A stretch of 64,000 nt of DNA, from assembly GCA_965153355.1 (NCBI GenBank), contig OZ231126.1, forward strand, positions 41,540,001 to 41,604,000, given 5' to 3'. The notes beneath the pieces were generated by a model. The model did no database searches, was not told where the DNA came from, and saw only the letters and a list, made by a program, of their open reading frames with translations. Below are positions 40,162 through 44,400 of the stretch, one piece after another. A program made the position numbers and the translations under genes. Positions within the stretch are counted from its first letter, which is position 1, and each line of letters starts with the position of its first letter. Source of the DNA: Flaccisagitta enflata (taxonomy: Eukaryota).

Positions 40162-40490
40162 TTAAGGCTCATGCACGGCATGCACGCCACCACAAAAATG
40201 AAACATAGATAAAGAAAACTCGTCGGACACTGGGGACAAGTTTCTTGGTTGCAAAGTAATTCCATCTTCCGGGTACTGAACGGTGAGAGTTCGGAAACTT
40301 GGAGAGACAAAGTCAACCAGTTTCTGGCCATCTTTGAGTATTGTGTTTTCACAAATAACGACGATTTGCGCCGAGTCCACAGACGCAGAGGGAGAAAGAC
40401 GCTCCTTGAGACGATCAATGGCAAAACCTTTTACGGCCGAAACTTTGTCCGTCTGCTTGAAGCTCTTCAGAACGGTCTCTTCAGACAGAT
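40162..40490 (-). CDS. Predicted exon C of the receptor-RNase gene, ubiquitin-like (beta-grasp/RAWUL-like) domain
   Basis: Acceptor ctttattctcatatgcag|AT, phase 1, matching exon B. Reads DLSEETVLKSFKQTDKVSAVKGFAIDRLKERL...QIVVICENTILKDGQKLVDFVSPSFRTLTVQY, resembling ubiquitin SDTIENVK / QRLIFAGKQLEDGRTLSDY. Stop at 40162. Confidence 0.68.
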
Positions 40491-41054
40491 CTGCATATGA
40501 GAATAAAGGTTAACTTTTTAGTCGCGTGCACGCGACTCTACAACCCACTCTGTCCATCTGTCCGTCTGTCGGTCGGAAGCACTTAGCTTTTTTTCGACGT
40601 TTTACACCATTTTAAGTCATTCTAAGATGTTTAAGGTAAATTCAAGTCAATTTACATTTAGTCTGTTAGTCTTTTGGTCTTTTAATCTTTTGGTCTCATG
40701 GTCTTAACAACCGCACGCGACTGTAAAGGGTTGTCCTTGTTTATTAAACTGGTCGCTCATGAATAAACAATTATGTAAAATTGCTTGATGATTAAAGGAT
40801 ATCATCAGAACAACATTTTTTTCCATTTCACTTGTCGGTTTAGGTAAAGACAATGAAATTGCGAATTATCGAAGTGCATTTCGAGAACATAAAAGATAAT
40901 GCCTATAATGACGCCGATTCAATGCAAACATGAAATTAACTAAATGAGCCATCTAAAAAATCCAGATTTTGCGAATATATCTTAAAATCGAGTGTGTTAA
41001 AGCAAGTTGCGACACATTTCGAATCTACAATTCATTAAGCATTCCAATACGAAC

Positions 41055-41232
41055 CTGAATGGTTGACAACCGGAAGAAACTCGATTATGAGTTCGGGTTT
41101 TATGACTTGAATCGTCGATCCCTCGGAAACAAAGACTTTGGGCCTGCCGATGGCGGGTTGGAACTCAGCTTTTGAAGTCGTGGCGTTGGTGTGCGGATCA
41201 GTTGTTGCCTCCCACGACAACGAATTTGCCAC
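41055..41232 (-). CDS. Predicted exon B of the receptor-RNase gene (VANSLSWEA...PELIIEFLPVVNHS)
   Basis: Acceptor tattcag|GTG at 41233/41232 is phase 0, matching the exon A donor. Donor TCAG|GTTCGT at 41054 is phase 1. 178 nt, open frame. Confidence 0.65.
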
Positions 41233-41453
41233 CTGAATATTTGATATTTAATATTTAATCTTTTCCCCGTCGATGGTGAAATTGTTATCAGAGCTTGAAG
41301 CTCTAGTGTTGAAATTGGTGGCGTTTGCGTATGCCTTACGTGGAAATGGCGTTGCGACCATAATGATTTAAAAGATTCATTCTAATGCTGAATATGTAGA
41401 TTTTTTTTATAATCTAGAGAAAAAAAAGTTATGAAAGAACTTATCATATTCAC

Positions 41454-44400
41454 CTCTGCTGTTGGCTTATGGATCTGAATGGTTCTGTCGCAAGATCTGA
41501 CGAGAAGCGATTCTGAGGGCACATCTGGCCATAATCGCGTTGACATCTTGAGCAGTTGAGGAAAAACATCCACGTAAAAGTCAACGCAGGAATGCGTGCG
41601 ACTCTCAAACACAATTTCGGCCTTAGTCGCGTCCAAATCCGCCGATTCAAAGCTCAATATGATTTTGCTATCTCTCTTCAAAGGCAAAATGGAACCGTCG
41701 GCCATTCCACGGTTACACAATTCCGTTTCAAACTTGTCAAATGTATCCAAGTAATGTTTCGGTACAGATCTTTGGTCAACCAACTCCGTAAAACAGCTGA
41801 GTGAGTGCAAATAGAGAAACGGAAAAAGAGCATGGAATTTTTCCATCATTTCCATCGCGGACGGGTTTGCCTTACCAAAAGCGGCGAGCATGGCTTTTGG
41901 GTTTTCGTGTCCATGCTGGAAAATGTTGCGAATGATTCTTAGCAAATCGGCGAAAGTGACTATATCGTACCTTCGCCCTCCGTTGGAAGCGAAATCACTC
42001 AGGATATCCGCCATGACTCCCACATTCCAGGCTCCTTTTCCGCCTATGACGAGCGGAGAATTCCTCTCCAACTTCTCTCTTGCTTTCGCCTGTGCGATTC
42101 GAGCTCTCTTGCTCGTTTCACCTTTGAGATTTTTGATGAAGCAATTCAGTTCTTCAAGCAAAGACTTTTTCTTCATTTCATTTTGGAAAGGCGGGGTTAG
42201 TAAGGCTTCTCGGGGCGACAGTCCCTCTTGTAAGGCTAGTATGAGGATTCCCATCTCAATATCAGACGAATCTAGAAAATCATCAAGTTGAAGTTTTCTT
42301 CCGTTCGTTGTCCACGTCATGAAGAAATAAACGAGAGACGCGATGGAATTGTGCCGCCCTTCTCCTGGCATCTTCTTCTCATTACAGGGGACTGAAGAAG
42401 CAAGTTCCGGGTCAATTTTGGGAATCCAATTTCCCATTCTGTCGATGGTGAGAATGACAGAAGTGTGATTCAATCGTGTCCATTGAGCAGAACGTTTATT
42501 CAAGGCAATAGCTTTCAGAAAGTATTCTATAGCACTCACATCATTCATTGGAATCTCGAATAGATCGTAGGCAAGGTGTAAGACAAAGGGAAGGATATCT
42601 ACGTTCAGAGTTTCTTGAAGCATGGTGAATTCACGGCGTATTAGTGATGCCGAAGTGCTCCAGACTGATTTTCCATCGACTCTGAACATTTCCTTTGAGA
42701 TCCTCAAAATCCTGTTTTTATCCAGTTTTGCCAAATATGGTAATTTTTTCTTTATTTCTTGGAATGGTGGAATCTTAAGTGCCACAGTAGCCGAAAATCC
42801 TTTGAGCAAGGAAAGAATGAGAATGGCGTAATCAGCTGTTGGCAGTTGCTCCAAATCTTTGTGATTTATGATGTCTCTCTCCTTACCCATGAGTAAGCAA
42901 AAGATCACATTTGCAGCTGAATTCAGTTCATCGATCATATCTCTCTTGGCCTTCTCAGTTGTATCTGCGTAATAGCGCGCATTGTGGAAATCACAAATTT
43001 TGAGATTCCATTGGGAATGTGCTGAATTCATTTTCAAGAAAGCAGAATTCGAATCGATTTTCCCATGAATGATTTTCTTCTCCGAGTGCAAATAACTGAT
43101 AGCGGAGAGTAGATCTTTGATCAACTCTTTTGGGTTGAATTCAGCCCCCAACGCCCGTGATCCTTGAGTAAAATACTCTTTCAAGTTACACTCGGCCTTT
43201 TCCATGAAAATGATTCCTCTCGTTTCCGTCATTCCTTGTATCACCATTGCACGTTTCAGGCGTCTGATTCGCTCATGAGAAATTGCTTTGCGAATTGCGC
43301 ATTCCTTGTCAAACTCAGACCTTCTTTCTTTCAGATGAATTCGACTGTATATTTTTTGGTCAAAATTCCTTTCAAGTCTCATTTTGCGATGCCGGTTGTG
43401 CGCTGCATGTAAGACGAACATCACTACGAGAATGGCAAAAATTGGGGTAACAATTTCGAGCAAATGACAACTGAGGTAAACTCTCACAAAGTTGAAAGTC
43501 TGATTCCCAGCGCACTCGGTGACAGAGTTTGTGATGTAAGAAATGTGGTTCAACGTGTGCATTTGATCGCATTCATCACAAAGGATAGGGTTGCCTGCTA
43601 TTTGTACCTTTGTCGTTATCTGGAAGTCAGGTATAAATTTAAGGAGATTCATTCTTAGGTCAATCTCAGTCAATTTTTGTAGATATTCTGCCCCGCCGAT
43701 GAATGAGATGTTATTATCCTCCAGCCGCATTGAAGTTATATTTTCGTGGAACTTTGTAAAAGTATTATTGTGGAGATTATTTCCTGCATAATTGATCGCT
43801 ACTTGGTGGAAAGGTAGACATTCAGGGAACGAATCGAAGTGTCTATTGGGACAATCAATGGAAATATAATACTTTCGATCGGTTTGACAGTTGCAGCCTT
43901 CTGGGCAGCAAGGCACCACATCATGTAGTAGCAAAAAATCTATCAGGTACCTCATGTCTTCCTCGCAGCTACATTGCCAAGGGTTGTCTCTCAATTTTTT
44001 TTCATTGATTTCATTTAGGATGATCCACTTATTTTTTGGAATCATTCTTATATCATTGTGCTCAACATCAAGCTCTGTCAATGGCACAACATATTGTGGA
44101 ACATATGGTGGCGCAACATATGTCATATTGCAATTTTGAAGATTTTCAAGATCACAAAGCACATGAGCCCCAATATCTGATTCATCCTTGGAATAGAGCA
44201 ATGTCGGAATGCTGCTTAATTTGTTATGATTAATAATCAGTTCCTCAACCCCGATCTCGTCTTTGTTTTGAATGCCGCGATTGTATCTATCATTTGATTC
44301 AATATATATAATTTCGAATCTTGTTATTGCATTATGACTTAGATCAAGTCTTCTCAAGCTATTGTAAAACTTGATATAGCACCTCTGATTTCCTTCTAGC

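Follow-up and report, generated by a model that had tools for sequence, protein, structure and literature searches.

The window analysed here, a stretch of 64,000 nucleotides (nt) of Flaccisagitta enflata (assembly GCA_965153355.1, contig OZ231126.1, positions 41,540,001-41,604,000), carries on its minus strand a gene with an unusual combination of domains. Its predicted product joins, in order, a signal-like N-terminus, an AAC tract, leucine-rich repeats (LRRs), cysteine clusters, a membrane helix, a pseudokinase, a ribonuclease (RNase) domain of the KEN type, two ubiquitin-like domains (UBL1 and UBL2) and a short tail. Unless another sequence is named, the coordinates below are window positions on the minus strand. 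Twenty other open reading frames (ORFs) of the window gave no convincing Pfam match.

Exons and introns of the gene

The gene lies in a minus-strand open frame from 46325 to 41382 (1647 codons), which without splicing enters the first intron by 23 codons and ends at the stop at 41382. The original prediction had proposed that two GT-AG introns, 41453-41233 and 41054-40491, join the frame to further exons in a protein of 1731 amino acids. A spliced aligner trained on 15 intronless paralogs, and blind to this model, recovered both introns to the base and thereby raised the score by 30.5 units; shuffled downstream DNA gave any gain in none of 40 trials. Their removal leaves a single frame with one stop and 1731 amino acids from the ATG at 46142; the ATG at 46124, from which the protein has 1725 amino acids, is the likelier start, because it aligns with the first methionine of paralog L100. 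Exon A (41454..46142) thus extends from the signal peptide to most of UBL1, and is followed by intron 1 (41233..41453; GT..AG, 221 nt, phase 0), exon B (41055..41232; 178 nt, with the variable loop and last strand of UBL1 and the first strand of UBL2), intron 2 (40491..41054; GT..AG, 564 nt, phase 1) and exon C (40162..40490; 329 nt with the stop), which encodes the UBL2 core and a conserved acidic-hydrophobic tail and closes with TAA at 40164-40162. Retention of intron 2 or skipping of exon B leads to a stop within a few codons.

Comparison with paralogs points in the same direction. Among the 30 best exon-C loci, the window included, the sequence of exons B and C is contiguous in 20, interrupted at the window's intron 2 site in 8 and split elsewhere in 2; in 17 of 40 further loci, the KEN domain and both UBLs lie within one ORF. 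Over the 3' half of exon B and the core of exon C, the ratio of nonsynonymous to synonymous substitution rates (dN/dS) is 0.11-0.32 against the mid-distance paralogs L112, L113, L115 and L116, and 0.31-0.78, on few changes, against the two closest paralogs, L111 and L114. In the databases, protein P0044 (Logan) equals P0007 (ENA) over 144 residues, after which P0007 stops within a few residues and P0044 enters the second domain; P0044 looks like the product of a spliced transcript of a relative. The two extra exons are therefore very probably real on these comparisons. What they do is complete a UBL pair rather than add one, possibly two, UBLs as first proposed, most of UBL1 being already encoded in exon A.

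Domains of the predicted protein

The KEN domain (Ribonuc_2-5A; 41690..42194) scores 37.4 bits against Pfam PF06479, for which the cut-off is 23.3. The residues Tyr, Arg, Asn and His, described as catalytic in Ire1 in excerpts of PMC3149027, are all four present in the alignment of the window KEN to Ire1, at IRE1 spacing (about 41975-41913). In an alignment of 39 rows chosen by similarity, every row has Arg, Asn and His. Tails were modelled at 57 of 59 loci, two without the anchoring motif having been dropped, and 51 of the 57 have Tyr at the spacing known from Ire1; the count of 57/57 for the catalytic motif is circular, the loci having been oriented by means of it. Both fold predictions were made on a natural intronless paralog, L083, which has 33% identity with the window across exon A and whose 338-residue tail gave a predicted local distance difference score (pLDDT) of 91.5 and a predicted template-modelling score (pTM) of 0.85. 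Residues 1-141 of this tail match Ire1 (3fbv) with Z 13.8, a root-mean-square deviation (rmsd) of 3.6 and 133 residues aligned, and RNase L with Z 9.1. By alignment and modelled fold, the window KEN is an IRE1-type RNase domain with its catalytic residues intact, for which RNA cleavage is predicted.

The same L083 model describes the two domains that follow. UBL2 (40270..41094), which spans intron 2, has a clear ubiquitin-like fold as modelled: residues 256-338 match ubiquitin-family structures with Z 8.8-10.4, the top rows having rmsd 1.6-2.0 Å over 68-76 residues. Best among them are the Get5 UBL (Z 10.4, rmsd 2.0, 76 aligned) and a parkin complex (Z 10.2, rmsd 1.6, 68 aligned), and the Atlas score is 0.90. 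UBL1 (41095..41666), in whose variable loop intron 1 lies, is predicted as a beta-grasp domain with weaker matches. Taken alone, it has the order strand-strand-helix-strand-strand (pLDDT 82.4), and all 50 rows shown are of beta-grasp type (ubiquitin-like, SUMO, UBX, MoaD/ThiS, FERM, superantigen), with Z 5.8-7.7; the best, the Ddi2 UBL, has Z 7.7, rmsd 3.0 and 76 residues aligned. UBL, DWNN, MoaD and superantigen beta-grasp rows fall within one Z unit of each other, and Foldseek returned no match for UBL1 alone at E<=0.001. These searches bear out the beta-grasp domain expected across the junction of exons B and C and the weaker second one before it. Of the two labels suggested for the fold, ubiquitin-like and RAWUL-like, the first agrees with the matches and the second occurs in neither fold-search list. 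A C-terminal GG, also noted as missing in the original prediction, is found in 0 of 57 modelled proteins; the interaction module suggested there is a putative role for the pair.

As a pair, the two domains align in Foldseek with linear di-ubiquitin, ISG15 and OASL over about 175-186 columns, and also with FAT10, the E-values starting from 1e-6. The template-modelling scores are low and the rmsd mostly 10-15 Å, so the arrangement of the pair differs from that of di-ubiquitin, ISG15 or OASL. A match of exon C to PilN (E 0.097) and the profile matches to designed repeat proteins were taken as chance.

Behind UBL2, the last residues (40269-40165) and the tails of paralogs in the window's subfamily share a conserved acidic stretch and two spaced hydrophobic residues, often with Phe-Asp/Glu; the window's tail is less acidic and some 10 residues longer than those of its closest paralogs. 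Its dN/dS is 0.02-0.18 against four paralogs where computable, and 1.09 against L114. A very short profile of 21 tail positions retrieved 0 PDB sequences at E<=10. The tail may resemble the C-termini of ribosomal P-proteins or LC3-interacting region (LIR) motifs, a likeness for which the PDB gave no match.

The part before the KEN domain supplies a putative sensor and an anchor. A first LRR block (43989..45002, boundaries approximate) is fast-evolving and matches Pfam LRR_8, of which the protein has five stretches (E 1.2e-32). It is followed at 43464..43988 by an LRRCT-like and an LRRNT-like cysteine cluster, a short LRR block and a second LRRCT-like cluster, in a Toll-type arrangement, and then by a predicted transmembrane helix (43398..43463), the window of highest hydropathy (2.41). 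By motif, this is the layout of P-type or multiple-cysteine-cluster (mcc) ectodomains (at least two LRRCT, usually an LRRNT, one membrane helix), which excerpts of PMC8609888 use to define protostome-type Toll receptors. The internal cysteine cluster was matched, by motif and not by Pfam, in 15 of 25 long ORFs. No TIR domain was matched by Pfam in the window or in the 14 proteins of a further scan, and a Pfam scan of exon A at E<=1 found LRR_8 and Ribonuc_2-5A only, with no ankyrin repeats. Near the N-terminus of the ectodomain, an in-frame (AAC)n tract of about 129 codons (45480..45865) encodes poly-Asn; it is absent from paralog L100, and L044, L062 and L063 likewise contain stretches of poly-Asn or poly-Gln.

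On the other side of the membrane, the pseudokinase (42771..43330, boundaries approximate) has HGK in place of HRD (43070) and DFH in place of DFG (42998). The joining of a kinase fold to KEN is read from weak kinase matches in the window and Pkinase matches in paralogs. Between pseudokinase and KEN, the window's subfamily (L097, L098, L099 and the window) carries a helical insert (42195..42770), which may have arisen as a tandem copy, now degenerate, of the kinase end and KEN start (self-match E 0.003). That it is a second KEN was not established (hhalign probability 1.4%). L098/P0001 contains repeated pseudokinase segments, and the sequences suggest an internal tandem duplication behind both these segments and the insert.

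The family in the genome

The window gene is one of many. The region from RNase to UBL1 has at least 132 genome matches on all nine contigs (131 of 221 candidates scored), Pfam KEN at least 146, likewise on all nine (150 of 172 scored), and exon C 46 (59 of 59 scored). A canonical, intron-rich IRE1 with HRD and DFG stands apart from the family (L131, L132; G000:C6:6303000-6322900), and the genome has a second multi-exon IRE1-like gene (L133; G000:C4:63767000-63776900). Since canonical IRE1 is retained, the unfolded-protein response does not depend on the family. In a database search, 3 sequences matched the genome's IRE1 exon, and of these only an amphibian IRE2 (52%) had a name. Database searches for the window's architecture returned only unnamed proteins. 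Of 282 matches, the best 150 were considered, and 30 proteins were scanned; those beyond the family were mostly of IRE1 type. Many of the database relatives are 92-100% identical to copies of this genome, and therefore probably come from the same or a close species, and others are 25-59% identical.

The RNase cassette also occurs behind a different sensor. Among 13 further KEN loci, L137 and L141 carry a KEN-UBL cassette on LRR-Roc-COR proteins, as does database protein P0156, which gives a putatively cytosolic version of the cassette (L141:3778-8748; L137:2055-6854). L141 keeps HRD and DFG in an active-looking kinase, with one UBL-like domain by alignment only; L137 and P0156 combine a dead kinase and two UBLs. 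Other loci encode kinase-KEN-SH2 proteins that form a separate KEN clade (L138:3857-6172; L139:3843-6182; L134:4954-6912, the last with two SH2 stretches), and L140 (L140:4386-5903) is a kinase-KEN protein whose C-terminus has no Pfam match. In a midpoint-rooted KEN tree of 33 rows, all 18 rows with UBLs group together in a clade (97/92) that excludes IRE1. Inside it, the active-kinase forms are the sister group of 15 dead-kinase rows (100/99), among which membrane and Roc-COR sensors are intermingled.

In the family, the LRRs evolve fast and the RNase slowly: in pairwise comparison with the window gene, dN/dS is 1.10 for the LRRs and 0.19 for KEN against the nearest copy, and 0.46 and 0.11 against the next. 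The two closest copies were duplicated as DNA, together with their introns (92-97% identical locally) and several kilobases of flank. The nearest one, L101/L151 (G000:C1, near 41.68-41.69 Mb), has the inverse orientation at a distance of about 105 kb and is no longer homologous upstream of window position 44978; by its sequence, it may have been truncated by an insertion. In another copy, L061:3547-4344, the second half of UBL2 follows directly on the start of KEN, apparently as the result of an internal deletion.

The introns of the tail have a history of their own. In an unrooted tree of 56 rows, from which L127 was left out as an incomplete model, intron 2 occurs in a single clade of 8 members (100/98) and nowhere else. 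A different site is characteristic of a clade of 10 members (98/96), the remaining sites are each carried by one, two or three rows, in one case not monophyletic, and 17 rows are intronless. Apart from those in the variable loop, the distinct intron positions number at least six over some 150 codons, most of them tied to one clade. All 24 introns counted at five fixed sites have an exonic AG before and G or A after, a pattern that is partly built in because the aligner rewards AG before the donor. The length of intron 2 among its 8 carriers ranges from 276 to 3144 nt, and within that of the window, 40705-40520 holds short tandem repeats and a motif that recurs elsewhere in the window. Repeated recent intron gain in an intronless tail is likely, as the simplest reading of these sequences.

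Interpretation and comparison with known systems

We read these genes as a family of innate-immune receptors, single-pass membrane proteins coupled directly to an RNase, and consider this reading probable because of the more than 130 copies, the fast evolution of the LRRs and slow evolution of the RNase, the intact catalytic residues and the retention of a canonical IRE1. By analogy with IRE1 and RNase L, a ligand on the LRR ectodomains would bring two copies together, and the dead kinase would act as a dimer scaffold for paired KEN domains; a role in dimerisation is given to the kinase domain in excerpts of PMC10400998. The paired domains would then cut cytosolic RNA, with a translation halt or cell death as the outcome. 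The UBL pair, most likely not conjugated, would restrain the RNase or dock to proteasome or p97-type ubiquitin-binding machinery, and a dangerous nuclease would thereby be held off or cleared. Within the immune reading, such a regulatory brake or docking module is about evenly balanced against other roles for the UBLs. Other KEN expansions have been read as defence RNases, according to parts of PMC3710099.

Several points weigh against this reading. Large LRR receptor families can also serve development or self-recognition, and the receptor role is drawn here from sequence, predicted folds and analogy, as the splicing of the window gene is from DNA and paralog comparison. The LRR and KEN ratios are pairwise and come from two paralogs; synonymous divergence against L101 varies five-fold along the gene (0.04-0.23), and since it is so uneven, gene conversion has possibly inflated the LRR value. 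The 33-row tree has a midpoint root and leaves out RNase L, and three of its rows (the window, L097 and L099) carry the insert, not a kinase end, upstream of KEN. As for the UBLs, the Z values of UBL1 lie in a range flagged as possibly a common arrangement. At the level of sequence the likeness to ubiquitin is weak: of 23 paralog sequences, 5 match Pfam ubiquitin or Rad60-SLD, all of them under the curated cut-off, and exon C of the window alone has no ubiquitin-type Pfam match. In the PDB profile search, ubiquilin appears at E 0.34, ranked under designed repeat proteins.

The alternative that survives best, although we regard it as unlikely, is that these are IRE1-like stress or developmental receptors, whose LRRs sense endogenous ligands or misfolded proteins, whose RNase splices or degrades host mRNAs and whose UBLs route turnover. 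KEN is indeed closest to IRE1 in both sequence and fold, the single-pass topology is like that of IRE1, and Toll receptors are also developmental according to excerpts of PMC8609888. However, the genome retains its canonical IRE1, the copies exceed 130 with fast LRR evolution, and the cassette is found also on LRR-Roc-COR proteins of the cytosol, in which a luminal part is missing. Allorecognition or symbiont control, in which polymorphic ectodomains would detect foreign conspecific cells or symbionts and the RNase would kill the contacting cell, would likewise explain a fast ectodomain on a conserved RNase, and where database copies are closely matched they differ by about 1-7% from those of this genome. 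We hold it to be improbable, as the copies are dispersed over all nine contigs without clustering; its mechanism is largely the same as that of an immune receptor.

Even less probable is that the UBL pair serves as bait for pathogen deubiquitinases or proteases, so that cutting or binding releases the RNase as by a tripwire. The fold search did align the tandem with di-ubiquitin, ISG15 and OASL, excerpts of PMC8764230 report viral proteases acting on the OASL tandem, and within the tail conservation is lowest in the UBL1 loop; but the terminal GG is absent throughout, the UBL cores are under purifying rather than diversifying selection, and the domain orientation is unlike that of di-ubiquitin. 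That the gene is cargo of a mobile element or endogenous virus, or a silent pseudogene with exons B and C unused, is scarcely credible: long, nearly intronless ORFs scattered genome-wide, some broken copies (stops; L101 loses its N-terminus) and the unusual 129-codon AAC tract would suit it, whereas the two closest copies share introns and several kilobases of flank, the frame is intact over 1725-1731 codons, and there is purifying selection. A viral origin was rejected, 0 of 53 pattern matches having been confirmed in viral contigs; so was a discrete mobile element, given the flank and introns that near copies share, with no search aimed at terminal repeats.

If the immune-receptor reading holds, a large family in which a Toll-type ectodomain is joined directly to an RNase cassette would link receptor and effector in a way that is new for animal immunity, and would parallel RNase L by convergence. 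We would go further only tentatively, and at slightly less than an even chance: this lineage may have independently built an immune branch from IRE1 parts, with more than 100 Toll-type surface receptors and cytosolic LRR-Roc-COR sensors, an adaptor-free RNase L-like nuclease and a UBL safety catch, so that detection of an extracellular pathogen would lead straight to the destruction of RNA within the cell. Swappable sensors (LRR-membrane helix or LRR-Roc-COR), the step from an active kinase with one UBL to a dead kinase with two, and intronless copies that can be cloned as one ORF make the idea directly testable. The several intron positions in one short tail also offer a compact case for the study of intron gain.

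No description of LRR-transmembrane-pseudokinase-KEN-UBL or of Roc-COR-KEN proteins was found in the literature searched, most subscription journals being outside its scope. The genes look like an apparently undescribed immune receptor family, in which the KEN-ubiquitin fusion alone has a precedent: excerpts of PMC3710099 (Anantharaman et al. 2013) list KEN fused to UBI once. The KEN expansions described there in Oikopleura and monocots are solo KEN domains without a kinase, read as defensive, and those parts of its main text mention neither an LRR-transmembrane nor a Roc-COR part fused to KEN, nor a tandem UBL. 'LRR' is likewise absent from the available main text of PMC10400998.

With IRE1, the window protein shares a single-pass topology, a cytoplasmic kinase fold followed by KEN, and four catalytic residues at the same spacing; it differs in having an LRR ectodomain instead of a luminal sensor, a degenerate kinase, tandem UBLs, more than 130 copies and a separate clade. 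RNase L of jawed vertebrates has the same succession of repeat sensor, kinase-fold scaffold and KEN (fold Z 9.1), and arose by the addition of a sensor to a kinase-RNase protein, according to parts of PMC10400998. Unlike it, the window protein has no ankyrin repeats by Pfam in exon A and carries a UBL tail, and 2-5A sensing is unlikely because the protein is predicted to be membrane-anchored with an external sensor. Its origin was probably independent of RNase L, which is not in the tree. Known Toll-type receptors signal via TIR adaptors, and the immune kinase-RNase that is known, RNase L, belongs to jawed vertebrates and is cytosolic. The ectodomain has the two LRRCT-like clusters and one LRRNT-like cluster before one membrane helix of mcc Toll receptors, whereas the cytoplasmic part is an RNase cassette with no TIR match. 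This likeness is one of layout, the LRR matches being generic: the best in the PDB is the IGF acid-labile subunit, with the Toll family lower.

For the C-terminal half, the closest parallels are OASL, ISG15 and FAT10 (PMC8764230, in part), with which the window protein, probably an immune protein itself, shares two head-to-tail beta-grasp domains at its C-terminus; the window's pair differs from them in sequence (11-17% identity), relative orientation, a long UBL1 loop, the lack of GG and the attached RNase. TBK1 and IKK-epsilon resemble it in that the top feature match in Atlas is IKK-epsilon with TBK1_ULD (score 0.94), a likeness of features only, and they differ in that the window protein has KEN between kinase and UBL. 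Finally, ROCO proteins have a counterpart in the genome itself, which carries LRR-Roc-COR versions of the cassette, while the window gene, without Roc-COR, bears the same cassette behind a predicted membrane helix.

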